Shown here one piece after another: positions 56-56,146 of a DNA stretch of 64,000 bases. Positions within the stretch are counted from its first letter, which is position 1, and each line of letters begins with the position of its first letter. The translations under genes and the position numbers were made by a program. Where the stretch lies: the NCBI GenBank assembly GCA_031275485.1, contig JAISOS010000007.1, forward strand, positions 2,618-66,617, read 5' to 3'. The notes beneath the pieces are model-generated. The model did not search any database, was not told where the DNA came from, and saw only the letters and a program-made list of their open reading frames with translations. This DNA comes from Clostridiales bacterium (GTDB taxonomy: Bacteria > Bacillota > Clostridia > Christensenellales > JAISNN01).

Positions 56-116
56 GTGCGAGGGAAACCTTTTGTTGAAAAAAGACATCCCCACGCGTCT
101 CTTTCAAAAAAATTTG
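56..116 (-). repeat. REP-like family A copy (degenerate)
   Basis: gcgagggaaaccttttgttgaaaaaag...cacgcgtctctttcaaaaaaattt. Confidence 0.7.
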
Positions 117-336
117 ATATTTTTGTATTTTAATTAAATCAAGACGCGGTCAAAAGCTCGTTTCCATAGATTAAAACGTCATACTTTTAAGGGATTTCCA
201 CGGTTTTTAAGGCGTTTTTCGAGAGCTTTCGGCTAAGCCGTCAAACGGCGATATATTCCGCTTCCCTTTCGTTTAAGACCTTTTCGCTTTTGGACTGCGG
301 ACACTATACGAAACTTTTATTTGTAACCGGAGATGC

Positions 337-496
337 GGCGTGTTCGCGTAACGAAAACGAGAGGATTTCAGGCGGGTTCCGTGTCTCTCGAGGCGTTTAA
401 CTATGCGCCGCCACGCGGGGGGGGGGGACAACGCCGAAAAGGGTCAAAATAAAGTCAAAAAACACGACGTTCACGCTTTATGTGAACACGCCCTAA
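337..496 (+). mobile_element. MITE-like family C copy
   Basis: TIR ggcgtgttcgcgtaa / ttatgtgaacacgcc; homologous to 2805-2950, 15972-16127 and 28530-28671. Confidence 0.8.
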
Positions 497-946
497 AATT
501 CGGAACTCTCAATATTTTATAATACCAACCTTATCAGCGGTAATAGTATGCGATAAAACGTAATTAATAAATATAAATACTTCATAAGTATAGCATAAAT
601 TTCCCTTTTTGTAAAGCCGTATAATGTAATTTTTAGATGATTTTTGTTTCAACACAATAGACGCGTCAGGTTACGGCCGTCATAAAACCCACATAATAAT
701 AGCCGCGCTTACGGTTTTTTGCGGCGCTTTCTTATTCGAGATTATGTTGACCTTATCCGTAATGAAGCCTGGTTTTAGACGGTTTTTGCGTCAGGCAAGA
801 CTGCGTTTTCGACAAAACGCGGACTCCGCCGCGTCGGAAAAAACAACGTAGCCTTACGCGAAAGGAAACAAAATACGACTGTCGTGATAGCGTCAACGCA
901 CGCCCGTATATACCGAGATTTTCACCATATTCTATAAAAAATTTTG

Positions 947-992
947 TATAACAAATCCCGCTCCTTTAAAAAAGGGGGCGGGATTTGTTATA
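947..992. terminator. Strong hairpin, probable terminator downstream of rbr
   Basis: tataacaaatcccgctcc / ggggcgggatttgttata inverted repeat. Confidence 0.6.
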
Positions 993-1223
993 TAATCGTT
1001 AAAATCGGGATTGCGGCGGATATAATCGCTGAATTTTCGCCGTAAGCGGCGGATTCTTTTTCGCATAAATACGCGTCTTTATCCCCGCATGTTTCAGCAA
1101 AAAGCCGCGTCCGCGTTTTGTGTCTTTAAATCCTTTAAAAACGCCGCACCGCCCGTCGCGCCTGTTTGCCGCCGCATAGCAGACTTTCACCGCGCCCTTT
1201 TCCAAAAAATTCACCGCCGAAAA

Positions 1224-1766
1224 TCAATAATTCGCGGGATTTAATTCAAAATACGCCCTCGGGTGCGAGCAGACCGGGCATTGCTCCGGCGCTTCGTCGC
1301 CGTAATGGATGTGACCGCAATTTCTGCAATGCCACGCCTTTTTTTCCTCTCTTTTAAACACCGCGCCATTTTCTATATTCGCGAAGAAACTTTCGTATCT
1401 TTTCTCATGATTTTTTTCGACCGCCGCCACGCCCGCGAACAGCTTGGCTATATCGTCAAAGCCCTCCTCTTTCGCCGTCGCGGCAAATTCCTTATACATA
1501 GTCGTCCACTCGTAGTTTTCTCCGCTCGCCGCGTCCTTCAAATTGACCGCCGTCTCGGGTACGCCGCCGCCGTGCAGCGCCTTAAACCACAGCTTTGCGT
1601 GTTCCTTTTCATTTTGGGACGTTTCGTTAAAAATTTCGGCAATCTGCTCATAGCCGTCCTTTTTGGCGCGGCTCGCGTAGTATTGGTATTTGATTGCCGC
1701 CATACTTTCTCCCGCGAAAGCGGCGGAGAGATTTGCTTCGGTTTTCGAGCCTTTCAACTCTTTCAT
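1224..1766 (-). CDS. rbr: Rubrerythrin
   Basis: N-terminus [18 protein letters not shown], di-iron ExxH motifs (EKEH, EKNH), C-terminal rubredoxin CxxC...CPxC; GGAGG RBS. Confidence 0.95.
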
Positions 1767-1913
1767 AATGGTACCTCCGTCATTTTAAAATTAAAAATAT
1801 TTATCGATATCAGACTTATCCGCATAACGCCGTAACCGGTAAGTCTGTTTTATCCTTATCGGCGCGGTAGCAGACTGTCCGCCGCAGGAATTTCAATCGG
1901 CGGCGCCCGCCGT

Positions 1914-2687
1914 TCAGCGGTACGCGATACTCTCGTCCTTAGGCGGTTCTATACCCCGCCGCCCGCACGCCTCAAGCAATTCTTTCGGTAGAAAAATCCG
2001 CATATCCGGATCGTTTAGCGAAACAAATTTATATACGTATCCGTCCGCCGTCAGAATTTTAATCGGAAGCGATTCCTTGTCTATCCAAAGGACCGATTTA
2101 CCCGAAAGCCGCGAGGTCATACGCCCAACGCGCGCCGTTTTTATTTTATATCCGCCGTCGCGCGCGGGCGAGGCTTCCATATTCCCCGTCATACGGCCGT
2201 ATCCCAATTTGGCGCTCATAAAATCGTCGCGGAAATATTCTTTTTCAATATTGCGGCGGTTGTCCACGCAAACAAGCCCGTTTCCGCCGCAGTAATAAAT
2301 CGTATATTTTTTATTGATATAAAAGACAATATTTTTACCGTTCCGTCTCAAAAGATACGCGTCGGATATATTAGTATAACGTTTAATGAGAAAAATCAAA
2401 ACGCCGCCCGCTAAAATCAAGATAAAACCGCCGGTAATCAAAGCGATAAACGAGCCGCCGCGATATCGATATTGACAGCCGTAACCGATAACGGCAAGCG
2501 CGCCGAGTATCATATACGCCAAACCGACGACGGTAACGACTGAGATTTTTTCGCTTACGACGGCGCGGCATGATCTCAGTTTCGAATACGACAGCCGGAC
2601 AAGCTCCGACGCGGAGCTTCCGCGAAACGGTTTATCCGTATGTTTTTCGTTATTTACTTTTCCCGCCGTTTCGCATCGTTTATTCAT
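1914..2687 (-). CDS. Hypothetical membrane protein (two N-terminal TM helices)
   Basis: 257-aa ORF with two hydrophobic segments and an upstream GGAG; no family recognised. Confidence 0.6.
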   Translation of the reverse strand: MNKRCETAGKVNNEKHTDKPFRGSSASELVRLSYSKLRSCRAVVSEKISVVTVVGLAYMILGALAVIGYGCQYRYRGGSFIALITGGFILILAGGVLIFLIKRYTNISDAYLLRRNGKNIVFYINKKYTIYYCGGNGLVCVDNRRNIEKEYFRDDFMSAKLGYGRMTGNMEASPARDGGYKIKTARVGRMTSRLSGKSVLWIDKESLPIKILTADGYVYKFVSLNDPDMRIFLPKELLEACGRRGIEPPKDESIAYR

Positions 2688-2804
2688 ACATGCCGCTCCG
2701 TTTCCGGCAATATCCGGATTACTTCCGTTTTCACGCCGATTATCCGCGTATCTTCCGCTCCGTTTTAAGAGCCTGTTTTCAGTAATTAAAAAAGGATTCC
2801 GAAT

Positions 2805-3837: not shown

Positions 3838-4214
3838 ATTTCGGCTTCCTTCATACGCGTATATATTATATAACGTTTCCGTCAAATTTGCAATAGTAAA
3901 ATAATAATTTTATGTAAATTTAAAACTCAACCCGCCAGAACGCCGTAATAAAGATATATAATCCGTTTAAGTATTACGGGATTTAAGATTTTTCATAATA
4001 TATAAATAGATTATGTATTACGAAATATGACATTTTTCATAATACATAATCTGTTTATATATTGCTAAACGCAGCGTCCTGCGGAATATTCCGTATTTCC
4101 TCTCCGAATCGTTAAAGTTTTTTGAAAAGGGCGCGGTGAAAGCCTTAGGGCGACGAGGCTTTTTGCCGGAATACGTGAGGAAAATACGCGCCAGATAAGT
4201 TCGGAAAGGGCTCT

Positions 4215-5795: not shown

Positions 5796-6926
5796 CTATA
5801 TCCGCGTCCTTATTCCGCGAAGCCCGACGACCAACGGGTTTTTCCGCGCCGATATATTCATTGCCAGGCCGATCGCCGCCATATACGCAAGTAGTGAGCT
5901 ACCGCCCGCGCTCATAAACGGCAACGGCAGACCCGTAGGAGGTATCGAGCCGCTTACGACGGCTATATTTATCGCGGTCTGCACGGCGATGAGCGACGCG
6001 ACGCCCGCGGCAAGATACGCGTCGAATTTGCTTTCCGCCCGAATCGCCGCCCGCGATATCCTAGCTATCAAAAATACGAACAAAAGAATGGTAATGCACG
6101 AACCGAACAGCCCCAACTCCTCGCCGATTATGGAAAAGATAAAATCCGATTCTGAAAACGGCAAAAACAGATATTTTTGGCGCGAATTGAACAGTCCCAC
6201 TCCGAAAAAACCGCCCGAACCCAGAGCGTAATAGGATTGAATCAGCTGATAACCCTCCGCCTTAGGCGACGCCCACGGATCGAGGAACGCCGTAAGGCGG
6301 CTCATTCTGTACGGTTCCAAAACTATCATAAGAATTACGCCTGCGGCTATCGGCAAAAGTAGCAGAATAAGCGTCTTAATCTTCATGCCGCCGATGAGGA
6401 GCATAATCAGCATTACCAGCCCGACGCACATAGTAATCGACATATTCGGCTCGAGTATAATAAGCGCGCACATACATCCGCCCGCAAGGAAAACCGGAAC
6501 CGTATTTTTAAATTTATTCATATCGTGAACGGACATTTCCGCCGCCGCGTATATTATAAAGCCGAATTTGGAAATTTCGGAGGGTTGCAGCGTCGTAAAT
6601 CCCAAATTTATCCATCTCGCCGCACCGTAATTGCTTACGGAAAGACCCGGCACAAAAACCGACGCGAGCAGAATGAGAGAAAACGCGAGAACAACATAAC
6701 GGAACTTAACCAAGCGCTTTAAGTCTAAAAAACCTATCCCGAACATCACGATAAGCCCGGCGGTCAATGCGACCGCCTGTTTTTTTACATAAAAAAAGGC
6801 GTCGCCGTAGGAAAACTCCGCGCCGTAGGAGCTTGCGGAATATATCATCAAAATCCCGAACAGCGCGAGGCATACCGTTAGCGCGGGGATCCAAAAATCA
6901 CCCTTTAATTTCAAACTTTTTGTCAT
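5796..6926 (-). CDS. ftsW: SEDS family protein FtsW/SpoVE
   Basis: GAARWINLG, QPSE, GYQLIQS, LPFSESDFIF and TGLPLPFMSAGGSS motifs; could be the sporulation paralogue spoVE. Confidence 0.9.
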   Translation of the reverse strand: MTKSLKLKGDFWIPALTVCLALFGILMIYSASSYGAEFSYGDAFFYVKKQAVALTAGLIVMFGIGFLDLKRLVKFRYVVLAFSLILLASVFVPGLSVSNYGAARWINLGFTTLQPSEISKFGFIIYAAAEMSVHDMNKFKNTVPVFLAGGCMCALIILEPNMSITMCVGLVMLIMLLIGGMKIKTLILLLLPIAAGVILMIVLEPYRMSRLTAFLDPWASPKAEGYQLIQSYYALGSGGFFGVGLFNSRQKYLFLPFSESDFIFSIIGEELGLFGSCITILLFVFLIARISRAAIRAESKFDAYLAAGVASLIAVQTAINIAVVSGSIPPTGLPLPFMSAGGSSLLAYMAAIGLAMNISARKNPLVVGLRGIRTRI

Positions 6927-6958
6927 ACATAAATTCCTTTTTGAAAAAAGGAAACATT

Positions 6959-7024
6959 ATGCGCGGGAGGAAAAACCTTTCGTTAACAAAAGATACCCCG
7001 CGCTCACTTCCTAAAAACTTTAAC
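6959..7024 (-). repeat. REP-like family A copy
   Basis: Hairpin followed by a cttcctaaaaacttt tail, upstream of ftsW. Confidence 0.75.
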
Positions 7025-7256
7025 GGTTAGAATACGCGCCGCGAACTTTTTTAAGAACGGGAGCTTATCAAAGCCTCGCTCCCAAAACGCGCCGCGAAAG
7101 CCCGTTTAAAAACAAGCGGCATATATTGCGGCGAAAGAGCTTTTACCCAAAAGTTCGCGTATCGTTATATGCGAACGGGGAACGGCAAAAGCGATGCGCG
7201 CGCAAGCGACCGACGGATTGTTTTTTCTCTCCGCTCCGCAAAAAACTCCTATACGC

Positions 7257-8819: not shown

Positions 8820-8982
8820 GTCGCATAAACGAAATTACGTCTAAAATAAACGTTTATTTTTTTGCCGCAAGCCGCTTAAAGGTTCTTTTTCATATTCCGG
8901 CAATGCGAAAAAAGGTTCTTTTTGCGTCGCAAGCACGGACAAAAAAGACGGACTCAATTTTAAGCCGCTAAACTATGACCGC
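8820..8982 (+). mobile_element. MITE-like family G copy (degenerate)
   Basis: ttttttgccgcaa...aaaggttctttttcatattccggcaatgcgaaaa core shared with the other copies. Confidence 0.6.
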
Positions 8983-9099
8983 AAAAAGTCCTTTTTTTGC
9001 GTAATCACCGCATGTATTACACACGGAATTAAAAAGAACGGCGTTTTCATATTAGACTACGTTCAATTTGAAAATTTAGCCGTTTTGCTTATAAAAGCA

Positions 9100-9162
9100 T
9101 TAAAGTCTTTCGGAAAGGGGCGCGTGGGAAACCTTTTGTTCACAAAAGGTTTCCCACGTGTA
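9100..9162 (+). repeat. REP-like family A copy
   Basis: aaagtctttcggaaaggggcg-cgtgggaaacctttt gttcac aaaaggtttcccacg. Confidence 0.9.
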
Positions 9163-9219
9163 AATTTTTCAACAAAAATCTCCGCGCATACCTCACTCGA
9201 TCCTCATTTTTATATAATT

Positions 9220-10641: not shown

Positions 10642-10678
10642 TTGCGGTAACTCCTTGTTTTTATTTTTAATTTTTAAT

Positions 10679-10738
10679 TGCGTGCGAGAACCTTTTATTT
10701 ACAAAAGGTTCTCGCACGCGCCAATTTTCCAAAAATTT
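10679..10738 (-). repeat. REP-like family A copy
   Basis: gcgtgcgagaacctttt atttac aaaaggttctcgcacgc plus tail. Confidence 0.9.
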
Positions 10739-10754
10739 CGACGTCATACTTTTA

Positions 10755-11725: not shown

Positions 11726-11761
11726 TTTAAATTTCCCCTTTTTTAGTAAACGGAGATTTTA

Positions 11762-12234
11762 TACGGGGAGAACCTTTTTTCACGAAAGGTCTCCTCCCCA
11801 CGCCTCTTTCCTAAAAATTTCAATGATACGTTATCCCGTTAAACTTTCAAATTACGCAACGTAATTTGAAAGCAATTTGAAGTTTGCTTCAAACTCGGCG
11901 GCCCCCCCGCTTTTTAACGCCGTCACGGTGAAAAAACCGTAAAACGCTTTGCATTTTACGGCCGCGTTATTGCGACCGTGTAAACTCTGCGAATCGCGTA
12001 ATTTAAAAGTTTATTCGCCGTATTACCGCGCAAAAAAACGCGGCGTTTATGTTTTTTTACAAGCTCCCGCAACAAAGTCCGATGCCGCCGCAAAACATCG
12101 CCGCAGTATTTCTTTAATTTTCGTAAACGCCGCCGAAACGTTCTATTTTAGCGGAACGTTAAAATATTAAAGTTTTTTGGAAAGGGATGCGCGGATGAGA
12201 TGGATCTTTTGTGAATAAAAGGTTTCACGCGCAT
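11762..12234. repeat. REPIN-like composite: inverted family A pair (11762-11823, 12167-12234) enclosing a family E element (11840-12013)
   Basis: Two family A copies with tails pointing inward; the inner element has 18-bp TIRs. Confidence 0.8.
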
Positions 12235-12582
12235 AAATTTAAAAAAAGCCGCTTACGGATATAGACCCCGAAACGGCTGAAACCTTTATATAGTGATTAC
12301 GCCTTTCAACCGCACCGCGCGCATGGTTTAAGCCGCATAAAACGCGGTTGCAAAAAGCTTTGTTTTCTGCGCGTAATCGCTTCGAACGGTGTTAAACCGG
12401 CGAGAAAACTGCCGCGCCGTTCTTAAAAAACGACGCTTCCAAATCGACCCGTTTAATCCGAAAGCTTAACGGGTATATAAAAAATGCGACCGAACGGCGT
12501 TAAAGCGCGCGTACCGCCGAGCTTCCGTTTCCGCGAAACACCTCCCCGTTATTTTTTCGGACCTAAACGGATTGACGATCCC

Positions 12583-14684: not shown

Positions 14685-14764
14685 ACGGTTTCGCCGTTTG
14701 CGGTAATTTTATTTTTTTATAAAAATTACGCGGAAAAATTTTTTTCTTTTTCTTTAAAAAAAAT

Positions 14765-14830
14765 TACGCGGGGGAAATCTTTTGTGAACAAAAAGATTTC
14801 CCCCGCGTCCCTTTTCAAAAAAAACTCTAA
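14765..14830 (-). repeat. REP-like family A copy
   Basis: acgcgggggaaatctttt gtgaaca aaaagatttcccccgcgt plus tail, downstream of rpmB. Confidence 0.9.
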
Positions 14831-15228
14831 TGTTTCTTATAGTTTTATATAGGTCGGGCACCGCCGTTAAGTTTTTTTTTTACGAAAGACAAATAAAGAT
14901 AAGTATCGGACCTTTTTCAAAACTTGACTGCGACCAGCCGGTACGTTTTTGAATAATCTATTATGGAAAGCGGTATCGTTTTCGGTTGTTTTGCCGTTCC
15001 AATCCCCTTTTCCGTATCGTTTTTCACGTTATTTTCGTTGTTTTTTACACTTTTTTCACGCTGTTTTATCGCTTTTTTGTTTTTCCGACGGAATATTTTT
15101 TCGTATTACGCTTATACTAATTCTAAAAATACGCCGCAAAAAACGGGTTAAATTTCAATTTATATATAAAAAACATTCCGTAAAAAACGTATAAAATTTA
15201 CGCGGAATTCGAAAAAAAAGGTGATAAT

Positions 15229-15971: not shown

Positions 15972-16127
15972 CGTGTTCGCGCAAACGAAAACGGAAGGAT
16001 TTAGGGCGGTTCCCGCGCCTTTCGAAGCGTTCAACGACGCGCACCTCCGCATGAGGAAAAAACAACGCCGAACGGTGACAAATAAGCGTCAAAACGCGCC
16101 GTTTGCGCTTTTATGTGAACGCACCTC
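15972..16127 (+). mobile_element. MITE-like family C copy
   Basis: cgtgttcgcgcaaacgaaaacgg...ttatgtgaacgcacc. Confidence 0.8.
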
Positions 16128-19924: not shown

Positions 19925-20027
19925 AGAAGCACCTCGATTTTTTTATTTTTTATTTTTTATTTTTATGTTATGCTTATTTCTCGTCCGCTTTGTTTTTTCA
20001 TCGTCGTTATGCGAAATGAAAACACAG

Positions 20028-20188
20028 TCGTTGCGAATCGGAATTGAGCGGAAATAAAAACTGAATTTTTTGCCGTAAAGTGAGAAAAAGGTTCTCTTTC
20101 GTATTCGGGCAATACGAAAAACGGTTATCTTTGCCGCTCGCGGCGAAAAAGGCTACAATCATCTTTTCGCGATTCCGATTCATAACGG
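20028..20188 (+). mobile_element. MITE-like family G copy
   Basis: TIR cgttgcgaatcggaatt / cgcgattccgattcataacgg; homologues at ~8820-8982 and 25275-25402. Confidence 0.75.
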
Positions 20189-20346
20189 ATATACTACCCA
20201 CGATACTTCGCTACGTTCCCTTAAAAAAGGAACTTTTACTCTAATTTTACGTTTTGCCAAAGCTCCCTTCCGAAAGTGAGCGGTCGTGCCCGCGCGGCGG
20301 AGTTTACGACAAAGGCGGCGACCGCTTTCGCGTATTTTCGCGGTAT

Positions 20347-21030
20347 AAAAAATCCCTACGCTTCTCAGAAGCATAGGGACGATTAAAAAAAATTCTAACC
20401 GCGGTACCACCCGAATTGACGCAAAAAACATGCGCCCGCTTTAAAAAGACCGGAAAACGCGCCGTATAATAAGGAACCGTTTCCGTATGCGGAAAAACCG
20501 AAAGCATACGAAATATGTATTCGCGGTAGTATACGGAACGGCACGCCGCATAAATATCCGTGCGAAACGGAAAAGCCGCACCGCAAAAAACGTCCTTATC
20601 TATACGGAAAGCGCGCCTATCACGGCGGTACGGAAAGCCCTCCCCGCAACGTGATTCTTCGCGCCGGTCTCAAGGCGTATAACGGCGCCGCCCGAAACCG
20701 CTTACTTAAAAGCCCGACTGGAATGTCCGAAGAAACGACCGCGCAAAGAGTTTAAAAATATCTCCGGCTTTTATCCTGATAAAACGCCTTTTAATATTTT
20801 GTCAACGCCCGCGCGCGACGCGTCCGACAAATATTTCCGGTTTTTTACGGTAAAAAACTGCCCGAATATTTTTCCGACGCGGCTCGTTTGTTCCTCAAAT
20901 CTCCTAAAAGACTTTGTTAGGCGGTTCTGCTAAGAAGGGATAAACGGATTTTTTTAAGCGCCGACCTTTCACCTTACGCGGCTCTCTTATGGCTTACGGC
21001 AAACCCGCCCGTGTCTTCTATTATCGCATT
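20347..21030 (-). promoter_or_regulatory. T-box riboswitch (probable Ile, AUC specifier), greatly expanded
   Basis: Stem I with AGAGA and GGUGAA motifs; stem IIA/B GCCGUUA; T-box AAUUCGGGUGGUACCGCG (20400-20417); antiterminator CGUCCC; terminator UCCCUAUGCUUC/GAAGCGUAGGGA-U6. Confidence 0.88.
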
Positions 21031-21046
21031 TATTTATATACATCAT

Positions 21047-21075
21047 ATTGTAATACAATTTTCCAATAAAGTCAA
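21047..21075 (-). promoter_or_regulatory. sigma-A promoter of the T-box leader
   Basis: TTGACT-17 nt-TACAAT just upstream of stem I. Confidence 0.75.
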
Positions 21076-21133
21076 ACGAAAATTCACCGCTTTTAAAAAA
21101 AAATTGTCAGCGTATGCGGTTTAGAAACGATCC

Positions 21134-21200
21134 GTTAAAGTTTTTTTTTGGGAAAGGGGCGCGGGAGGAACCCTTTTGTTCATAAAGGATTCCCCCCGTA
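21134..21200 (+). repeat. REP-like family A copy
   Basis: aaagtttttttttgggaaaggggcgcggg hairpin, just after the spoIVA stop. Confidence 0.85.
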
Positions 21201-21213
21201 TATTAAATAAATA

Positions 21214-22695: not shown

Positions 22696-22924
22696 ACACA
22701 CTCCTCAAAGCCGGGAACGCCCAACACGCGCCGGCGTCCTTGCCGCTCCTTAAAATTATTGTCTGAAAGAAATATATTCGGACCGTTCTCAAAATATGCC
22801 GTAATTTCTCTCCCGTATTTTTTCTTTTTTTAAAAACGGAGCGTTTGTTGCGGCGGAAGCCTCTTGCGAACAAAGCCCGCCGTCCGCGTCGCTTGTCAAA
22901 AAATTTGTCTTTTTACATAAAAAT

Positions 22925-22970
22925 TACGCGGCGGAAAATCTTTTGTCTACAAAAGATTTTCCGCCGCGCA
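22925..22970. repeat. REP-like family A copy (hairpin only)
   Basis: cgcggcggaaaatctttt gtctac aaaagattttccgccgcg. Confidence 0.85.
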
Positions 22971-22987
22971 GTCTTTAAAATAATCCA

Positions 22988-25144
22988 TTATTTGCCCTTT
23001 TCCTCATCCCGCGCGATTTTCTTATCAAAAAAACCGCCGTCGGCATGATTGAAAACAAGCGCGCTCATCGCGCTCCAGCCCTGCATGAGCGAGCCGTCCT
23101 TATGCGCGGGGCTGAAAAACTCCACCGGAGTCAAGTTGCCCTTTTCAGTATTGTAAGAAAACCAGCGCGTGAGCGGGTATTCATAATCCATGCCGTACAT
23201 AAGCTTCGCGTAAGCATACGCGGCGGAAAGATACGGCCATTCCCCGCCGTTGTGATAGTAATACGGCAACGAGCTTTTTTGAACGACCGCATCAACGTCC
23301 TTATAAAACGGAAAGACCGACAGCACGCCGAAATCGCCGAAAACCTGCCGCTTGTTATTTTTACTCTCAAGAACCGCTTCCATATTTTCAAGCATCCGCC
23401 GTATGCGCTCCTCCGACGCGAGGCGGAAAAGCGCGACGGTCACGGTATCCGCCGAGAGATTATCCTCCGTAAACCCGCCGTTTTTATAGTTGACGAACCG
23501 CCCCCTTTCCTCGTCCCAAAGAATATCGTTTATTGATTTGACGACCTTTTCGTAGATCCGTCTGTAAAAATCCGCCTTCTCCCGAAACGTCAACGCCGAC
23601 CGCTTTTCCGATATGCCGCAGGCTATTCCGCCCCGAGGATTTGCCAAAATTCCGCCTTCGTTTTGCGCGTTTTCAGAAAGACCGACGCCGCCGATCCGCC
23701 GGTCCGCAAAAGCCGAAAAAATTTCGGAAAGACAATACAAAGCGCGGGCGTAAAGCGCCTCGTCGTACGTCACGTATCCCTCTCGGAAAACGTTGTCGCA
23801 CCAGTCGCGGCGGTTGAACCGTCCCTTTTTGACAATAAGACCCGTTTCGTCGCTCTCCCCGCGCAGGCGTTCGACGGCGGCCTCCGCGATAACGGGCAGA
23901 GTCCTTCCGCGTATTTTTTCGCGTAAAATTGAAAAGTCGCCCGTATGAGCTATGTAGTCGCGTATAAGCATAACGAAAAACGAGGGCGAATCGCAGTGAT
24001 TTCCCCAATAATTCTTAAAACTCGATTTGACTGCGGACGGACATTCGCCTTTTTTGCCTATGCCGCGAGCGAGCGTCAATATTTGACCGCGCACTATGCC
24101 CGGCCTTACGGCGATCAGCGGCAGCGAAGTCCAATAGCCGTCGCGGAAATAAGTCCGCGCCGGAAATTGATAGACTACGCCGGCGAGCAGCGCCTTAAAA
24201 TCTCCTTTTTCCTTGTAATTGGAGACCGCGCAATTCACGCAGGATACGTATAGAGCCCTTTTCAATTCGCCGTTTTCATCGTCCGCGCAGTTTGTTGTAT
24301 TCCGCGTTTTATCCGTTGCGCCCGTTATATCCGACGCATCTTCTATCGTTATTTTCTCATTGTCACCCCGCATTTTTTCAACGTTTTTGTCGTAAAAACC
24401 GTTCAGCTCCTCCGTATACGCGTCGGCATTCCTCTCCTTTTCGGCTATAACCTTAAGTAATTCCTCCGCAGACGCATCCGAAAAATCCTTGCGCGTCCCC
24501 GCCGAAACGACCAAATTTACGACGCGTCGTTCGTTTTCGCGCATTTTTACTTCCGTTTTAAACTGATTTACGAAAAAAAAGTTCCGCTCCAAAGCAGTCA
24601 GCTTATTATCCGAAGCAAAATCTATATAAAAATCACTCAAAATGTCGTTTTTAATACAAAAATCCGTGCTTTTAACATGTTTTTTCAGCGCGCCGAGAGC
24701 GATTTTCGGCAACGACGAAAGCTTGAAGCGACTCAAAAAAAGCTCGGTTAAATAAGAATTATAATTGACGCCGAAATTGATTACCGCCTTGAAATCCAAA
24801 TCCTTACGCGCGAAAACCTCTATTCGGTAAAAAACCGCGTTATCCTTGTCGGAAAGAAATTGCCGCGTCTCGATTTCCGCGCCTTCCGCATAAATTTTCG
24901 CGGTAAGCTTGCGCCCGGCCGCCGTAACGCTTTTTCGCTCCGAACCGTCAAGCGCGCGCCCGTCTAACGAAAATAAAAGATGTAAAAAACCGAACGCTTC
25001 AAATTTGTTTATAACGGCGTAGCGGCTTATGCCGCCCCTGCCGTCGAACTGCGAGTTCAAAAGAGTATTGCCGACGTCGTAAGGAGTCCCGTCGAGAGCA
25101 AGCCCTTCGACCGCCAGCGCGCCGCGCCGGTATGAAACGTTCAT
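22988..25144 (-). CDS. Six-hairpin (alpha/alpha)6 glycoside hydrolase-like protein (GDE/MGH1-like)
   Basis: RTYFRDGYW, DWCD, YHNGGEWPY and QGWS motifs typical of six-hairpin glycosidases; GH family not assignable by eye. Confidence 0.7.
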   Translation of the reverse strand: MNVSYRRGALAVEGLALDGTPYDVGNTLLNSQFDGRGGISRYAVINKFEAFGFLHLLFSLDGRALDGSERKSVTAAGRKLTAKIYAEGAEIETRQFLSDKDNAVFYRIEVFARKDLDFKAVINFGVNYNSYLTELFLSRFKLSSLPKIALGALKKHVKSTDFCIKNDILSDFYIDFASDNKLTALERNFFFVNQFKTEVKMRENERRVVNLVVSAGTRKDFSDASAEELLKVIAEKERNADAYTEELNGFYDKNVEKMRGDNEKITIEDASDITGATDKTRNTTNCADDENGELKRALYVSCVNCAVSNYKEKGDFKALLAGVVYQFPARTYFRDGYWTSLPLIAVRPGIVRGQILTLARGIGKKGECPSAVKSSFKNYWGNHCDSPSFFVMLIRDYIAHTGDFSILREKIRGRTLPVIAEAAVERLRGESDETGLIVKKGRFNRRDWCDNVFREGYVTYDEALYARALYCLSEIFSAFADRRIGGVGLSENAQNEGGILANPRGGIACGISEKRSALTFREKADFYRRIYEKVVKSINDILWDEERGRFVNYKNGGFTEDNLSADTVTVALFRLASEERIRRMLENMEAVLESKNNKRQVFGDFGVLSVFPFYKDVDAVVQKSSLPYYYHNGGEWPYLSAAYAYAKLMYGMDYEYPLTRWFSYNTEKGNLTPVEFFSPAHKDGSLMQGWSAMSALVFNHADGGFFDKKIARDEEKGK

Positions 25145-25174
25145 AAATTCACCCTCTTTTTTGTTTTTTAAATA

Positions 25175-25237
25175 TGCGGGGGAGAAACCTTTTAATACAA
25201 AAGGTTCCCCCTACGCTCCTTTCCGAAAAACTTTAAT
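25175..25237 (-). repeat. REP-like family A copy
   Basis: Hairpin plus cctttccgaaaaacttta tail. Confidence 0.8.
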
Positions 25238-25274
25238 GTTATATCACCGTATATTTACGCAAAATATTTTATAG

Positions 25275-25402
25275 CCGTTATGAATCGGAATCGCGTTAAA
25301 AATATATCGATTTTTTTGCTCCAAGCGGCTAAAAGATTCTTTTCCGTATTCGCGTAATACGGAAAACCGCTTCTTTTGCCACCCGCAGCGAAAAAGGCGA
25401 CG
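25275..25402 (+). mobile_element. MITE-like family G copy (right end lost)
   Basis: Starts ccgttatgaatcggaatcgcg, the exact reverse complement of the right end at 20168-20188. Confidence 0.75.
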
Positions 25403-28309: not shown

Positions 28310-28347
28310 ATGAATACCCTCTCTTTTTTTTATTCTTCGGGAGAACT

Positions 28348-28754
28348 TACGCGGGTAAAAACCTTTTTGCGAATAGGGCTCTCCCCGTACCCCTTTCCAA
28401 AAAACTTTACTGCGCGTTTTAATAATTTTACGCGAACGGAGCGCCGTACCGCCGTCTTTCTTCAAAAGACGGCGGATCGTTATTCGCTATCCGCAAAGCG
28501 CCTAACAAAAAACGCGGACCCGGCGCCGTCTAATGCGCTTATACATAGCGCAAACGGAGCATTTTGGCGTTGTTTTTCCCCGTGCGGCTCCGCCGCGTAC
28601 CGTTAAACGCTTCGAAAAGCGCGGCGACCGCCTAAAATCTTCCCGTTTTCGTTTACGTAAACACGCCCTAATTCATATGATAAAATTTACCGGAGTTTTT
28701 GGGAAAGAGGCGCGGAGAAAAACCTTTCGTTCACAAAAGGTTTACTCCGCGTAA
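28348..28754. repeat. REPIN-like composite: inverted family A pair (28348-28409, 28692-28754) enclosing a family C element (~28530-28671)
   Basis: Outer ends TACGCGG...CCGCGTA with tails pointing inward. Confidence 0.8.
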
Positions 28755-28774
28755 TTTCTATAAAAACAAAAATT

Positions 28775-44566: not shown

Positions 44567-44567
44567 G

Positions 44568-46507: not shown

Positions 46508-47149
46508 TTACCTCCGTTGGTCGATTTGTACTATGCAATACTTCTTGTCGGAATAGTCGTAATCAGCCCATTCGTCCTCGTCCGCTTTTGAAGTTTTGCG
46601 TACTTGGTATTGCTGTCCATCTATGACGAACGTCGTCTTGTCCGCCTTTTCTCTGTTCGTAAATATGTGGACGATTTGCTTGTTCTCGTCCGTATCAACT
46701 CCGCCTTTGGATAGCGGCTGTATGTGGTCTATGTCCCACCCGTATTGCGAATTCTCGTTGCGGTATGCGCTTTTAATAATCTTGTTGCCCGCAAAGTCGG
46801 TCGCTTCGGTTACGTCGCCGAACTCGCGTTCCCAAAAACTCACGCGCTTATCGCCTATCTTGTAAACACCCCGCTTGCCGCTCTCGTCTTTTTGTACTTG
46901 ATAGCGGATGCCGTCAATCGAGTAAGTTATTTTGCCGTCGCGTAAAACGTGCGCCTCGTAACTCACTATGTGTAGATTGTCATCCGCTTTCGTTCCGCCT
47001 TGGTCTAACGGCAGTATATATTCAAGCACCCACCCGTACTGCGAGCCCGCTTGATTGTATGCGGCTTTCTTTATCGTCCGCCCCGTATAGTCGTTTGCGT
47101 CCTGTGCGCCTTGTCCAAAAAACTTTACCCACCATTCGCTTGCCGTCAT
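46508..47149 (-). CDS. Tandem-duplicated HNH endonuclease-like protein
   Basis: Repeat 2 has GWDIDHIQPLSKGG...N...H..TNREK; repeat 1 is degenerate (GWVLEYILPLDQGG). Confidence 0.85.
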   Translation of the reverse strand: MTASEWWVKFFGQGAQDANDYTGRTIKKAAYNQAGSQYGWVLEYILPLDQGGTKADDNLHIVSYEAHVLRDGKITYSIDGIRYQVQKDESGKRGVYKIGDKRVSFWEREFGDVTEATDFAGNKIIKSAYRNENSQYGWDIDHIQPLSKGGVDTDENKQIVHIFTNREKADKTTFVIDGQQYQVRKTSKADEDEWADYDYSDKKYCIVQIDQRR

Positions 47150-49893: not shown

Positions 49894-50038
49894 TTCACTG
49901 TACCGCGCACTTGCCATTATTTATAAACTCCGTCGCAGATTCCCCACCCTTAACGCGGAATATCGCGGCGAATCAAACGTACCGATTTCAGCCGCCGCTC
50001 GCATTTTTTAACCCGCGCCGTCACAAAACGCCTCCAAC

Positions 50039-50854: not shown

Positions 50855-51120
50855 AAATAAAAAAAACCTCCGTTTTTATACCTCCCCCACGTCTCATTTA
50901 AGCGCGCAAACGCGGAACCGAGCATAGACATAATCCGGCTTCCGTATCCGCGCCTTGCCGTCCACAATACAAAACATGAGAGAAAAGTGGCGGCTTCCCG
51001 CGTAAGGTGCGTAATAATTTTAAATTATTTTAGCATTTATAGAAAAAAAAATCAATAAAAAACATATACAAAAAATTTTTTTTCAAAAATTTTTTTCAAA
51101 AGTTTAAAAATTTAAAAAAA

Positions 51121-51166
51121 TACGCGGTGAAAAATCTTTTTGCGAACAAAAGGCTACCCTCCGCGC
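51121..51166. repeat. REP-like family A copy (degenerate hairpin)
   Basis: tacgcggtgaaaaatctttttgcgaacaaaagg...ccgcg after the rluD stop. Confidence 0.7.
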
Positions 51167-51185
51167 AAACCTTTTTTTAAATTTT

Positions 51186-52097
51186 TTATTTTATTTCCGT
51201 ATTTCCCAATTTTTTTAAAACCGCTTGAAAATAATCGGGCAGAGGCGCGTAAAACTCAAGAATCTCGCCGCTTACGGGATGCGCGACTATAAGCTTATGC
51301 GCGTGCAACAACTGCCCGTTCGTCTTGAATCTCATACTGCCGCCGTAAAGCCCGTCCCCCGTAACCGGGTGCCCGATATGCTTTGAATGTACTCTTATTT
51401 GATGCGTTCTGCCCGTTTTCAGCTCGAATTCGACGAGTGAAAATTCTCTAAATCGTTTTATCACTTTATATAGCGTAACGGCGCGCCTCCCCTCCCGCGT
51501 CACGCACATTTGCAGACGGTTTTTAGGATTTCTTCCTATAAAGGTTTCCACGATCCCCTCGTCCGCCTTGACCGCGCCGTCCAAAAGAGCGGTATAATAC
51601 CGCCGCGCCGATTTTTCGGCAATCTGCCCGCTTAACGATAAATGAGCGCGGTTATTTTTCGCGGCCAGAATTAGTCCCGACGTGTCCTTATCCAGTCTAT
51701 GAACAATTCCGGGACGCATTTCGCCGTTAAGATCGCTGAGGTTTTGCAAATTAAACAGCAGAGCGTTGACCAGCGTGCCGGACGCCGCGCCTCTCGCGGG
51801 ATGCGCTACCATACCCTGCGGTTTATTTATGACCGCAAAATCCCCGTCCTGATAGATTATGTCGAGAGGTATCGCCTCCGGCTTTACGGAAACAGAGCGG
51901 TTCTCCGTCCGCGCGTACAAAACGTCTCCCGCTTTCAATATCAGACCCGCTTTCTTTACCGCGCCGTTCACGGTCGCGCGCGCGCCGTCAATCAAGCTCT
52001 TCACGTAAGAACGCGTTGCGCCCTCTATACGCTCGGTCAAATACACGTCAAACCGCCGCCCCTCGCCCCCGTTCTCAACAATAAATTCATATTCCAT
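51186..52097 (-). CDS. rluD: RluA/RluD family pseudouridine synthase
   Basis: S4-like N-terminus, INKPQGMVAHP, GIVHRLDKDTSG and TGRTHQIRVH motifs. Confidence 0.9.
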   Translation of the reverse strand: MEYEFIVENGGEGRRFDVYLTERIEGATRSYVKSLIDGARATVNGAVKKAGLILKAGDVLYARTENRSVSVKPEAIPLDIIYQDGDFAVINKPQGMVAHPARGAASGTLVNALLFNLQNLSDLNGEMRPGIVHRLDKDTSGLILAAKNNRAHLSLSGQIAEKSARRYYTALLDGAVKADEGIVETFIGRNPKNRLQMCVTREGRRAVTLYKVIKRFREFSLVEFELKTGRTHQIRVHSKHIGHPVTGDGLYGGSMRFKTNGQLLHAHKLIVAHPVSGEILEFYAPLPDYFQAVLKKLGNTEIK

Positions 52098-52109
52098 TTG
52101 TTTTAGATT

Positions 52110-52168
52110 ATGCGGATAAAACCTTATTTAAAAAAGGTTTTATCCGCGCCCTCTTTCCAAAAAACTTC
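52110..52168 (-). repeat. REP-like family A copy
   Basis: gcggataaaacctt...aaggttttatccgc plus ctctttccaaaaaactt tail. Confidence 0.85.
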
Positions 52169-52498
52169 ATATAGACCCTATACTAAAACCCGCTAATTAA
52201 CGTAAGATCAAGATATATAAACAATACGGATTGCGCCGTTTATAACCGCAAGCATATACGTTTCGGGACAGGCTACGGATTTTATTTTAGACTGTTTTTA
52301 TGCTCGGCTCGGATTCCAATTCATGATCTAAGGCATTTTTTGAGAAAGCGCGGCGATGCCGCGTCGGAAAAAACAGCGCGGCCGGGGCGCCAAAACGGGC
52401 GAAGTACGAATATAGCGCATATTGTCAAATCCGCTCAGATGTGTTTCCATATAAAAAAACGCCGCGACCGCGTTATTTTGCCGCCGCCTATTTTCGCC

Positions 52499-53209: not shown

Positions 53210-53468
53210 TATAAATTTCCCCCGTGTCGGAATCCGTTTTTGTGGATTAAATTCATTCGGCAGGATTTTATAGGAATTTTTGCGGTTTTCGGGGCGTTTC
53301 CAAAAGAGTAATATCTAATCAGTTTAAGTACCGCGCGCTTCGAAGTATTCCGAACCGCGTCGTTTTTCGAAATATTCTTACCGTCAAAAATTCCCGTTTA
53401 CACACCGCTTTGCCTAAAATCAAAGTAACGCGGCATTGCGAATATAATCCATAACAACTATAACGCCG

Positions 53469-53529
53469 AAGTTTTTTGGAAAGGGGCGCGTGGAAAACCT
53501 TTTGTGAACAAAAGGTTTTCCACGCGTAA
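53469..53529 (+). repeat. REP-like family A copy (near-consensus)
   Basis: aagttttttggaaaggggcgcgtggaaaacctttt gtgaac aaaaggttttccacgcgtaa. Confidence 0.92.
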
Positions 53530-53555
53530 TCTATCTAAAAAAAGAAAAACCTCTT

Positions 53556-54191
53556 TCACACATCGTTTTTATTTTTGCCAACTGCGTCGTTCGTAACCTT
53601 TACGAAACTCGGCGTAAACAGAAACGCGCTTCCCGTAATTCTTTGCATACCGCCGTTTAAAGCGTAGATCGCGCCGCTCATGAAATCAAGCATTTTCTGC
53701 GTCGTTCCGTCGGGCAGATAGTGCAACTCGACGATAACGGCTTCCATGCGCTTAACGGAATCTATAAGGCGGATAATGTCGTCGAGCGAGCGCGGATAAT
53801 ACACATTGATATTGCTCAAATTCCCGTATTCCGCGCCTTTCCCGCGTTTGACTTCGCCGTCGAAAGACAACCCACGCCCAAACCTTACCCCGTTCGCCAA
53901 TTCGGGCGCCGCCGCGTTAAAATCGACGCGGGCGGGTGAAAGCGTCTCCCCGTACCGCCTGTACGAATCGCGCTTTTTAGGCGCGGACGTAGCGCCAAAA
54001 GCGGCGTTAGCGCCGTAAATCTCGGTCGGTAGCGGCGGGCGCGCTACATGAGTTCCATGCGGCGACGAACGCGCTACGCGGGACGGCGGCGGATTATCCG
54101 CCGCCGCGCTCGAATAAGTTCCGACGACGCGTCCTTCCTCCGCGCAATTTTCGGCGTGATAAAAATCTATAAATCGTCTGATTATTCCCAT
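53556..54191 (-). CDS. sepF: Cell division protein SepF
   Basis: C-terminal VYYPRSLDD...LDFMSGAIYALNG...FLFTP; follows yggS. Confidence 0.85.
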   Translation of the reverse strand: MGIIRRFIDFYHAENCAEEGRVVGTYSSAAADNPPPSRVARSSPHGTHVARPPLPTEIYGANAAFGATSAPKKRDSYRRYGETLSPARVDFNAAAPELANGVRFGRGLSFDGEVKRGKGAEYGNLSNINVYYPRSLDDIIRLIDSVKRMEAVIVELHYLPDGTTQKMLDFMSGAIYALNGGMQRITGSAFLFTPSFVKVTNDAVGKNKNDV

Positions 54192-54247
54192 ACCGTTCCG
54201 CCCCTTGCAGAAATTTATTATCTTCGGTATGCGAGGATCCAAAGATT

Positions 54248-54308
54248 ATGCGGAGGGCTTTTCTTGAGAGAAAAGACTTCTCCCCCCGCGCCCTTCAAAA
54301 GACCTTAA
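54248..54308 (-). repeat. REP-like family A copy (degenerate)
   Basis: Weak hairpin plus ccgcgcccttcaaaagacctt tail, upstream of sepF. Confidence 0.65.
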
Positions 54309-54588
54309 TAAATTTTTTTTCAACGCGTTCTTTCTTTAATAATGTCCCCCCGTGCCTTTTTCCGAAAATTTTCGTTAATTTAGGACATAAACGAATAAAC
54401 GCTTTACCGATGTTCGTTAACTCCTTTTTCTTGCATGTTTATTCATCGGTTCAAAACATTATTCGTTGGGTTTTCGAATGCTTTATTCCTAAAACGCGAG
54501 GTGAACACTCTTTTTTTATTTTAAAACGCATATACGTTTTACGTTGTTTTCTCGCATGCTTATTCGTTTTTATTTATCCGCCCGCCGC

Positions 54589-55272
54589 TTAGACTTCTCT
54601 TTTCCCGAATATGGCGGAGCCAAGTCTTATCATATTCGCGCCGTATTTTACGGCGGTTTTATAATCGTTAGACATTCCGGCCGAGAGATATTTGCAGTCG
54701 AGGTTACCGCCGCGCATATTCCTCACGCGCACGAACAATTCGTAAAGCGCCCGATAATACCTTTCCGTATCGGCGGCATTGTCCGACGCGGGCAGAACGC
54801 TCATCAAGCCCAAAACGCGTATGCCTCTACGCATCGCAAGCCCGTTTATAAATTCCTCCGCGCCGTCTGCGGAAGTGCCTCCCTTAGACGCCTCGTCCGC
54901 GATATTGACCTCGACGAGGCAATCGGTTATGACGGAATTTTTCAAGGATAATCTATCGATTTCCTTCGCCAGCTCCTCTCTGTCCAAGGAATGAATTAAA
55001 ACGTCCTTACCTATTAAATATTTAACCTTATTAGTTTGTAGCCGTCCGATAAAATGCCATTTAAATGGCGCGTCTTTCGCGTAATGCGCGACGAATTCCT
55101 GCACGCGGTTCTCGCCCAAATCGGAAACGCATCCCGCGACGGCGGCAATCGCGCCGCTCGTCTGTGTCTTCACGGCGGCGATAAGCGTAATTTCATCGGG
55201 ACTGCGTCCGCATTCGCGGCAGACCTCTCTTATGTCCGACCTGATTTTTTCTATATTAGCCTTGTAATCCAT
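54589..55272 (-). CDS. yggS: PLP homeostasis protein YggS
   Basis: LIAAVKT, LGENRVQE, WHFIGRLQTNKVK, SAGMSND and IRLGSAIFG motifs. Confidence 0.95.
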   Translation of the reverse strand: MDYKANIEKIRSDIREVCRECGRSPDEITLIAAVKTQTSGAIAAVAGCVSDLGENRVQEFVAHYAKDAPFKWHFIGRLQTNKVKYLIGKDVLIHSLDREELAKEIDRLSLKNSVITDCLVEVNIADEASKGGTSADGAEEFINGLAMRRGIRVLGLMSVLPASDNAADTERYYRALYELFVRVRNMRGGNLDCKYLSAGMSNDYKTAVKYGANMIRLGSAIFGKREV

Positions 55273-55553
55273 AAATTTTTCTCTTTATCGCCGCATAATC
55301 CGCCCGTTCATTACAAATCAGACTTAGTATACCATAAAGCTCGCCGAAAGTAAAGTTAAATCGTTTTTTTAACCGCGGAAAAATATTCCGATTTTGTATT
55401 TATTTTAAGTTTTTAAAAAACACAAACGGTTTTTCTCCGAAGTACCGGTAAATTTCACTCCGTCCGTAAAGCGAAAAAATATTTTTCAAGCTTCGTATAG
55501 ACATTAAAAACGCCGAGAACTTCGTCCCGAAATACGGATGCGTTTTCATTCTT

Positions 55554-56045
55554 TCAATCTAGCAAAAAACGTAACTCCTCAAACCATTTTTCATATCGGA
55601 ACGAGGGATTCGCTGGGCTTGTGGACGGCATTACAACGCAAGCCGTATCGGGATACGCGGCGATAAAAATTTCGTGCGCTTTTTTGCCGTTCAGAAGAAT
55701 TTTTTCGATATGAGCGACGCGCAGTATGCCGCTTATATCGGCGGTCTTATAGCGCGAAATTTTGCCGTCGGAGGAGCCTTCCGTTTCGCACTCCTCCGCC
55801 ATGTCGTAAAGGGCGATTCTATGTCTTTTCAAAAAGTCTTTTTTGCAAGCGGCGTCGTTCTTTATCTCCTCGCCAAAAAGCGCGGAAAGGACTTTGTAAA
55901 ACCTGTTTTGCTTGTTTCCGTAATAAAAACCGCTTTCGCGCGATTTCACGCTTGGAAAACTGCCGAGTATCAAAACCCGGCTGTCCGCGTCGAAAAACGG
56001 TTCGAAGCCTCTGCCCTTATAATATATATTTTTGCGCTCGCTCAT
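55554..56045 (-). CDS. UDG-superfamily DNA-deoxyinosine (hypoxanthine) glycosylase
   Basis: LILGSFPSVKS, FYYGNKQNRF and MPSTSPAN motifs. Confidence 0.85.
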   Translation of the reverse strand: MSERKNIYYKGRGFEPFFDADSRVLILGSFPSVKSRESGFYYGNKQNRFYKVLSALFGEEIKNDAACKKDFLKRHRIALYDMAEECETEGSSDGKISRYKTADISGILRVAHIEKILLNGKKAHEIFIAAYPDTACVVMPSTSPANPSFRYEKWFEELRFLLD

Positions 56046-56084
56046 AACGTAAATCCCGCGTGATTCTTAGCGGATTGGAACAGG

Positions 56085-56146
56085 CGTCGTTTCGGAAAAA
56101 ACCTTTCGCGAACAAAATCCCCCGCCGCCTCTTTACAAAAAACTAT
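56085..56146 (-). repeat. REP-like family A copy (degenerate)
   Basis: aaaacctttcgcgaacaaaa...cctctttacaaaaaact. Confidence 0.6.

Follow-up and report, generated by a model that had tools for sequence, protein, structure and literature searches.

A palindromic intergenic repeat with a conserved tail in gut Clostridia, probably a new family of non-autonomous mobile elements

The stretch of DNA analysed here, 64,000 nucleotides of contig JAISOS010000007.1 from the assembled genome of a Clostridiales bacterium and hereafter referred to as the window, harbors, among other genes, pgi, spoIVA, sepF, rluD, a glycosidase gene and a gene of the FtsW/RodA family, and many of the spacers between its genes hold a palindromic repeat that consists of a conserved 19-nt tail and a long, variable hairpin. 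The first-pass annotation of the window took this repeat for a hairpin of the REP (repetitive extragenic palindromic) type, possibly domesticated by the host as punctuation of its transcripts. We conclude that the element is probably a new family of non-autonomous palindromic mobile elements, a module of the same kind as miniature inverted-repeat transposable elements (MITEs), REPINs and SPRITEs. The earlier reading is supported in part: the repeat is palindromic, structured and interspersed, belongs broadly to the REP/MITE kind and matches nothing in Rfam, but neither its assignment to the class mobilised by REP-associated tyrosine transposases (RAYTs) nor the domesticated role is supported.

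The assembly that contains the window comprises 2.03 Mb in 92 contigs (48% G+C, 90.7% complete). It was compared with five congeners, denoted G001 to G005, and with the further hosts or relatives G041, G042, G044 and G045, all of these assemblies being incomplete metagenome-assembled genomes (MAGs). The only public run that matches the stretch, a DNA run that is possibly its source, is labelled termite gut metagenome, and the nearest relatives of the SpoIVA protein encoded in the window come from MAGs labelled Clostridiales, Clostridia or Christensenellales. Genes were called with a crude caller of our own (1593 genes, 72% coding), in which stops are exact and starts approximate.

The element in the window and in its genome

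Nine matches to the tail motif with at most three mismatches are present in the window against 0.16 expected, a number reached in none of 100 shuffled sequences. A covariance model (R1) built from 14 window copies, the E-values of which are rough, gave 33 matches in the window at E<=1, counting opposite-strand echoes of the palindrome; with the echoes removed, there remained 17 loci at E<0.01 and two weak ones, at 56089 and 22844 (Table 1). Together with the weak and tail-only pieces, this agrees with the first-pass count of about 17 copies plus fragments. The R1 scan of the window detected no copy within 28777-51099, a 22-kb gap for which about 5.7 copies would be expected from the genome density (hand calculation), and none past 56153. 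Comparison of the window with Rfam yielded no matches at gathering scores; in the E-value mode, the best match scored 26.2 bits against 51.5 needed.

Sequence logos of 265-365 copies delimit a module of approximately 78-110 bp. In the 5' to 3' direction, an A/T-rich (A-rich) box is followed by YR-TTRAAG-T6-GGAAAGGGG and then by an 18-bp hairpin in which CGCG, a variable arm and CCTTTTG lead into the loop whereas CAAAAGG, the matching arm and CGCG lead out of it; on the 3' side, the hairpin is followed by TAA-tttt (TAATTTT) and an A-run. On folding, pairs also form between the T6/AAA of the tail and the 3' TTT/A-run. The module as a whole is therefore a long imperfect palindrome, whose median folding energy is -26.6 kcal/mol in the forward and -24.6 kcal/mol in the reverse direction. 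The central two bases of the loop are found in both orientations, with no dependence on the gene context, and two thirds of the loops match neither of the canonical forms.

The hairpin arms differ between copies but remain complementary. In an alignment of 72 copies from the window and 20 further stretches (424 kb of the same genome), 91.5% of the stem cells are paired, compared with 33-68% in slid controls, and 65 stem cells are doubly changed, compared with 19.6 +/- 3.8 in shuffles, none of 500 of which reached 65; compensatory change was detected in 13 of the 18 stem pairs. These values come from an alignment that was fitted to the model and from copies of a repeat family that are related to one another. 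All five stem variants quoted in the first-pass annotation were recovered, and its claim of covarying stems is confirmed. The stem pairing is real, yet it is not by itself proof of an RNA function.

A search of the entire genome with a profile built from nine copies gave 516 non-overlapping matches (251 on the plus strand and 265 on the minus strand), of which 407 are nearly full length. The density is one copy per 3.9 kb, and all 25 of the largest contigs that were tabulated carry copies, at 1.4-5.0 per 10 kb. The great majority of the copies, 477, are intergenic, 15 lie inside genes, and 24 are found at contig edges.

The element shows a marked polarity. The hairpin side is nearer the gene in 415 of the 477 intergenic copies (p 3.5e-65), and the same holds for 262 of the 310 copies that are alone in their spacer and for 39 of the 44 copies in G004, so the non-random orientation to gene ends noticed in the window extends to the entire genome. 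Measured to the base of the hairpin, most distances are 15-45 nt for stops and 25-60 nt for starts, and the median distance from the tail side to the other gene is 250-350 nt. In 218 copies, the tail faces a stop and the hairpin faces a start, and in 164 copies the arrangement is reversed; 63 copies reside in convergent spacers and 32 in divergent ones. Per kilobase of spacer, this amounts to 1.05 copies in tandem, 1.08 in convergent and 0.41 in divergent spacers (hand calculation), that is, a depletion in the latter. Just one copy is found in 312 of the 392 occupied spacers. Neighbours that share a spacer are arranged tail-to-tail in 64 cases, in tandem in 21 and hairpin-to-hairpin in none.

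The first-pass annotation further emphasised that pgi, sepF, rluD and the glycosidase gene each have a copy on both sides. The identities of these genes are borne out by Pfam (PGI, SepF, PseudoU_synth_2 and GDE_C, respectively), whereas the bracketing is at the level of chance: 29 genes in the genome are flanked on both sides, compared with 22.9 expected under independence (p 0.15). The two-sided flanking of pgi, sepF and the others is a by-product of the copy density.

Tail-to-tail dimers, host range and turnover of sites

The tail-to-tail arrangement is best seen in other hosts. The G042 loci include seven tail-to-tail pairs, 99-237 nt apart and present in both orientations. In an alignment of these seven units with one pair from G041 and one from SIG618, the inter-tail sequence of the G042 units is conserved and the homology ends at each hairpin base. 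A count by eye in G041 gave 13 tail-to-tail pairs, their copies 42-273 nt apart, and no hairpin-to-hairpin pairs. Folded as single-stranded DNA, one of the G041 dimers forms three hairpins, the middle one closed by the paired tails (-63.5 kcal/mol, z -10.9). Because the tails are paired in the folded dimer, the tail is one half of a central stem and the hairpin is an outer terminus; the unit in these other hosts is, then, the tail-to-tail dimer, in which the 78-bp modules act as inverted termini.

In the genome of the window, the spacers of the dimers range from 10 to 971 nt. The DNA that flanks single copies on their tail side contains weak matches to the element at 2.8 times the density of copy-free spacers; a tail-to-tail arrangement with the copy is seen for 48 of these 68 weak matches (p 9e-4), and 32 of the 48 lie within 100 nt of the far gene.

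The distribution of the element among genomes is uneven. Counting R1 matches among scored candidates, so that all numbers are lower bounds, the window's own genome has 116 of 116, G004 has 110, G005 has 24 and G002 has five, whereas neither G001 nor G003 had a match, and the same was true of single genomes from 35 other families of the order (0 of 35). An exact 23-mer scan of approximately 186,000 species genomes identified one other genome, G041, in which R1 matched 125 of 150 scored candidates. The SpoIVA protein of G041 is 46% identical to that encoded in the window, compared with 52-59% for the other Christensenellales-type genomes compared. A 19-mer scan returned 34 stretches, in which R1 detected 42 full-length copies at E<=1e-5 in 33 loci; many of these come from a single MAG, G042, and the rest from various Clostridia-type MAGs. 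Genomes with a single match in the latter scan are at chance level and were counted only if R1 gave a full copy. Exact 23-mer scans of viral contigs and of metagenome contigs gave no matches in either set. The literature searched yielded no description of this repeat family. Patchiness within the genus, together with occurrence in distant hosts, points to horizontal spread. The family has been transferred among gut Clostridia that are only distantly related, and its expansion took place independently in each host.

The sites occupied by the element also differ between close relatives. We compared the spacers of neighbouring genes whose adjacency is preserved in the relatives, using about 375 kb of the G003 genome and about 350 kb of that of G004. 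The G003 spacers, which contain no copies, have medians of 42-59 nt; the same spacers in the window's genome have medians of 149, 321 and 404 nt with zero, one and two copies, respectively (81, 19 and 6 spacers). In the comparison with G004, none of 12 single-copy spacers holds a G004 copy and five two-copy spacers hold two between them, while 13 G004 copies are found in 35 spacers that are empty in the window's genome. Thus, in both comparisons, presence at orthologous sites is variable. Spacer length also differs at the operon-like junction that contains the tail-to-tail pair 28339-28762 together with another repeat: it measures 474 nt in the window, 35, 76, 74 and 137 nt in G001 to G004, respectively, and 266 nt, with an unrelated repeat, in G005. 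There is one shared site, 6 nt downstream of spoIVA: a congener locus (L012) has a copy at the same position and with the same orientation, and in another congener (L011) an ordinary terminator, the GGAGAAGC...GCTTCTCC stem of which is similar, occupies the place after spoIVA. The coding density, obtained with one and the same gene caller, is 72% in the window's genome, 73% in G004 and 84% in G003, and the median spacer is 91 nt in G003 and 323 nt in G004. Intergenic DNA makes up approximately 25% of the window's genome, or about 500 kb, and the part of it that lies beyond the repeats is missing from the compact congener G003.

The copies of the element and its fragments in the window are listed in Table 1.

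Table 1. Copies and fragments of the element in the window
Feature	Position	Strand	Basis
Element copy (tail and hairpin)	46..123	-	R1 63.0 bits, E 5e-10
Tail-only fragment joined to a different, tail-sharing repeat	1184..1211	-	nhmmer, model positions 8-35; hairpin missing
Degenerate copy, weak full match	4107..4179	+	R1 25.3 bits, E 0.008
Copy; hairpin adjoins start of FtsW/RodA-family gene 5796-6926	6949..7028	-	R1 56.9 bits; Pfam
Copy; hairpin adjoins pgi stop	9095..9171	+	R1 87 bits; Pfam PGI
Copy; hairpin adjoins pgi start	10670..10746	-	R1 61.7 bits
Copy; tail-to-tail partner of 12162-12244	11751..11828	-	R1 72.2 bits
Copy with 5'-arm insertion	12162..12244	+	R1 71.3 bits; alignment
Element copy	14756..14835	-	R1 82.6 bits
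Copy; hairpin 6 nt from spoIVA stop	21130..21211	+	R1 74.5 bits
Weak, degenerate copy	22844..22914	-	R1 16.9 bits, E 0.32
Copy; poor tail overlapping glycosidase-gene stop, then AATTTTT	22916..22993	-	R1 51.2 bits; top terminator-like site
Copy; hairpin 25 nt upstream of glycosidase start	25164..25241	-	R1 67.9 bits
Copy; tail-to-tail with 28685-28762 in 474-nt spacer	28339..28415	-	R1 61.7 bits
Copy; hairpin 16 nt from gene stop	28685..28762	+	R1 79.9 bits
Tail motif without hairpin	47108..47126	-	3 mismatches
Partial copy (hairpin, poor tail) adjoining pseudouridine synthase stop	51112..51193	-	R1 28.3 bits, E 0.002
Copy adjoining pseudouridine synthase start	52100..52174	-	R1 61.2 bits; Pfam
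Copy; hairpin adjoins sepF stop	53461..53537	+	R1 86.6 bits; Pfam SepF
Copy; hairpin abuts sepF start	54238..54313	-	R1 53.9 bits
Weak copy	56089..56153	-	R1 19.9 bits, E 0.084

The window contains three other repeats. The first, an intergenic family of about 180 nt (AACGAAAACG..GGATTT..GGCGG..CGTTTAAC..), is found at 325-500, 2820-2872, 15984-16094 and approximately 28480-28640, the last of these inside the tail-to-tail pair 28339-28762, and has 20-33 other copies in the genome; the copy at 325-500 includes a run of 11 G at 417-428. The second, of about 110-130 nt with a TTTTTCGTATT..AATACGAAAAA hairpin, is located at 8839-8947, 20048-20156 and 25293-25401, in the window on the tail side of element copies. 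The third, at 1060-1212 (minus strand) and in about eight other places in the genome (for example, C3:16951, C25:29681 and C8:11212), begins with the tail of the element and the first bases of its 5' arm but continues with ..GCCTTAGG..CGGCGGCAAA..AAAGACAAAAAACGCGG in place of the hairpin; because this different repeat starts with the same tail, the tail is common to at least two types of repeats. Two parts of the window stand out in other respects. The region 19925-21132, a stretch of 1.2 kb, contains no open reading frame (ORF) longer than 83 aa and has no Rfam match; on the minus strand, a strong sigma-70-like site (TTGACT-17-TACAAT, 21075-21047) is directed into this region. The region 58000-64000, which is devoid of element copies, is the sole clearly low-G+C part of the window (33-38% against 47% for the window), carries genes on the opposite strand and may be acquired DNA.

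The mobile-element interpretation and its alternatives

If the hairpin is the outer terminus in this genome as well, the element would have inserted into short ancestral spacers of about 40-90 nt, and each insertion would place a hairpin within a few tens of bases of a start or stop codon, the tail pointing inward. The polarity to gene ends would then follow from the terminal location of the hairpin and the shortness of the ancestral spacers, and no selection on position would be needed. Many units would have since lost one end or had it degraded, leaving solo modules. Pairing in the stem may be kept because propagation requires the palindrome, because the palindrome is self-correcting as DNA, or both, so that an RNA function for the host would not be needed. 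No mobilising enzyme was found in the window's own assembly among the transposase families searched.

Several observations weigh against such an origin. The spacers of the dimers in this genome are not conserved, homologous partners being found for 21 of 61 compared with 17 of 61 controls, and 82% of the tail-side flank bases are unique; a large element with a conserved core was considered and rejected here on the same grounds, namely, that pair spacers are not conserved and flanks are mostly unique. The composite model leans on the other hosts and on the 20% of single copies that have a degenerate partner, and most copies in this genome are solo. At base resolution, no filled site was seen against an empty counterpart, and alignment of contigs from the possible source run to the stretch revealed no joint that excises a copy. 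A target-site duplication was not detected: over 365 copies, the longest word shared by the two flanks averaged 5.86 compared with 5.85 in mismatched-pair controls, although this test could miss duplications of very few bases where the flanks are rich in A/T. Of the roughly 500 kb of intergenic DNA, 8.6% belongs to the element and 11-17% to other repeats, so that the extra spacer DNA is mostly unexplained. Finally, the stems are still 91.5% paired though G sites in the unpaired tail have diverged by 12-19%, and this upkeep could reflect selection in the host.

Nor was any transposase tied to the element among the six families that were searched, and this, too, counts against a mobile origin. 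TnpB had no match in five genomes. The sole element of the IS630 family, at G000:C30:14085-15061 (L174) in the window's genome, stands beside an element copy and consists of two ORFs (121 and 175 aa) between CAGC... inverted ends with TA on both sides; it was rejected as a parent because its ends are unlike those of the repeat. Contigs C69 and C38 begin with the first 119 bases of this IS630-family element, and the assembly graph branches at its left end. Genes of the IS110 family (DEDD) gave seven matches in the window's genome (L181-L186) and none in G003, G004, G005 or G041, so this family was rejected as the mobiliser. In at least one of these loci, L181, the transposase gene is preceded by an element copy, about 200 nt before its start, and an IS110-family insertion sequence could, conceivably, target the repeat. 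The genes enclosed by tail-to-tail pairs were likewise rejected as transposases: eight of ten belong to ordinary Pfam families, one is solute-binding-protein-like and one has no match, and they are not paralogous.

The alternative that survives best, although we consider it unlikely, is the domesticated role put forward in the first-pass annotation, whereby the host keeps the hairpins to stabilise, process or terminate its mRNAs, and both where they lie and how they are oriented are determined by selection. The compensatory upkeep of the stems well above controls is what this reading would lead one to expect, and so are the identical polarity in two species with independent insertion sites, the tightly peaked distances to stops and starts, and the depletion in divergent spacers. 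The stability of the stem (about -19 to -27 kcal/mol) and of the entire module is considerable, and in a 20-kb scan for terminators, several copies in the forward direction were the top terminator-like sites. However, the forward side carries a mean of only 3.0-3.6 T in the 8 nt after the stem, and a minority of forward copies qualify as intrinsic terminators. The stop-proximal copies are read in the reverse sense by the mRNA of the gene, such that the stem is followed by CCCCUUUCC rather than by a U-tract on the transcribed strand after the stop; a difference in U-tracts between contexts was also considered and rejected, being small and confounded by strand composition. The sites are not orthologous between the two closest species, two of the five congeners and all 35 other families of the order lack the element, the two-sided flanking is at chance level, and the orientation of the loop is independent of context. 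On the adjacent gene's strand, G-U pairs outnumber A-C (odds ratio 2.5, p 4e-7), which might be taken as a sign of selection at the RNA level but was rejected as such: the unpaired tail carries a matching bias on the sense strand of the gene, with C>T at 18.7% compared with 12.3% for G>A (1.5-fold), so the asymmetry is mutational. Effects on neighbouring transcripts, such as a stem-loop in an untranslated region (UTR) or weak forward termination, are plausible, if unproven, and most likely collateral.

A true REP/REPIN system, whose single-copy RAYT gene would be missing from the incomplete assemblies, seems quite unlikely. Inverted dimers with short spacers, as in the definition of REPINs in the cited part of PMC3337134, are the commonest multi-copy form in G041 and G042, target duplications are lacking, a conserved motif is found on one side of a variable palindrome, RAYT-like genes are present in G005, G042, G044 and G045, and MAGs often lose repeat-flanked genes. 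Against this, Y1_Tnp (PF01797) had no match in the window's genome, in G001 to G004 or in G041, negatives that rest on incomplete assemblies but include the three richest hosts tested (the window's genome, G004 and G041). Where Y1 genes do occur, the element does not flank them: Y1 genes of G042, G044 and G045 have no element at their flanks, and the element is beside the gene in none of the five loci with Y1 matches, four of them RAYT-like (one has a 26.9-bit hairpin approximately 370 nt off). RAYT-like genes whose flanks were read carry repeats of their own, and two of these genes are followed by tagged ones. In G045, the gene is followed by classical GTAG REPs. In G005, a sub-threshold Y1 match (C186, L173, 260-880, minus strand) is a RAYT-like ORF with a low-complexity insert of the NTSANASV type, after which come three repeats in tandem and a hairpin with a GTAG tag. 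The element described here has no relation to this REP system. Moreover, the logos contain no GTAG/CGTC tag, which is characteristic of REPs according to the cited part of PMC3733652; instead, GGGG precedes CGCG on the 5' side and TAAT follows CGCG on the 3' side.

A bolder synthesis, in our view also rather improbable, would hold that this is a RAYT-independent, three-hairpin REPIN-like element that spread horizontally among gut Clostridia, has reshaped the genome, leaving a coding density about 12% below that of an element-free congener, and has been co-opted as a polar insulator of gene boundaries. In that case, the terminator-like forward face would always look into the spacer and stop or process transcription before it enters the gene at either end, and the outward hairpin would cap the neighbouring mRNA.

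A function at the DNA level, with the palindrome as a protein-binding site or with an outward promoter (TTCACA in the loop, 16 nt, TAATTT) driving the adjacent gene, is very improbable: promoter-like matches, weak and not conserved, exist in two window copies (at 9139-9166 and at 11783-11756, with 9 of 12 positions in each), the spacing of hairpin and start codon suits a short leader, and Correia elements provide a precedent for repeat-borne promoters in the cited part of PMC3184786, but two thirds of the loops are non-canonical and their orientation is unrelated to context, no conserved -35-like signal is seen, transcription from about half of the copies would run antisense into a gene from its 3' end, and the A-rich box, examined as an internal or upstream promoter and rejected, lies 5-12 nt upstream of TTRAAG in all contexts and has neither a final T nor a -35 partner.

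The small palindromic repeats of Proteobacteria and pneumococci are well studied, but those of uncultured gut Clostridia have received hardly any attention. The probable mobile family described here goes together with a coding density that falls, from one congener to another, from about 84% to about 72%. Its absolute tail-to-tail rule, together with the lack of a recognisable RAYT, makes it a test case for REPIN-like spread without a Y1 transposase. There is also a practical warning. Such repeats break metagenome assemblies, with contigs ending inside copies; among the contigs of the possible source run, other copies pile up on the element, and contigs break at 9129-9141. The repeats also inflate the spacers, with consequences for the prediction of operons and promoters in MAGs of this kind.

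Comparison with known systems

Intrinsic (Rho-independent) terminators resemble the element in having a stem closed by G+C pairs near gene ends. The stem described here is twice the normal length, the U-tract is mostly missing and, in the stop-proximal copies, it would be on the wrong strand.

The Correia/NEMIS, ERIC and RUP elements, MITEs treated in the cited part of PMC3184786, are comparable foldback repeats of 100-160 bp that lie near genes and can form long RNA hairpins; effects on mRNA stability or promoter activity are known for them, and their sites vary between strains. Stable stem-loops in UTRs have been described for ERIC, Correia and SPRITE (PMC3184786, PMC3049150, in the parts cited). 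Like MITEs, the present element is short and non-coding, has terminal inverted repeats and occupies variable orthologous sites. Unlike Correia, ERIC and RUP, which according to the same part of PMC3184786 have defined terminal inverted repeats and TA duplications, with an IS630-type partner in the case of RUP, it gave no sign of a target-site duplication in the test used, and no cognate insertion sequence with the same ends was found among the six transposase families searched.

With the REP/REPIN-RAYT systems, as presented in the cited portions of PMC3733652, PMC3337134 and PMC3116915, the element shares the high copy number, the extragenic location, the palindrome whose stem varies and whose flank is conserved, the inverted dimers separated by a spacer, the absence of target duplication and an abundance that varies between close relatives; it is a short extragenic palindrome with more than 100 copies per genome, as REPs are. 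It differs from them by the absence of the GTAG/CGTC tag and of an associated Y1 transposase, by an 18-bp stem that is longer than in most REPs, by dimer spacers that vary from 10 to 971 nt in the window's genome, and by its occurrence in Clostridia; a word search of the portion of PMC3733652 used here gave no mention of Firmicutes or Clostridia.

Another close parallel is SPRITE of Streptococcus pneumoniae (Croucher et al. 2011, PMC3049150, in the part cited), a repeat of about 30 copies with a long U-rich tract that is enriched at convergent 3' ends. Both are interspersed Firmicute repeats with an 18-bp duplex and simple A/T-rich ends, lack demonstrable target duplications and a known transposase, and lie close to the ends of coding sequences, and SPRITE has been suggested to function as a terminator. 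There is no sequence relation between the two, and, unlike SPRITE, the element described here is present in 516 copies, has a G-rich 19-nt tail and a poor U-tract, forms tail-to-tail dimers, and is as frequent before starts (218 and 32 copies) as after stops (164 and 63).

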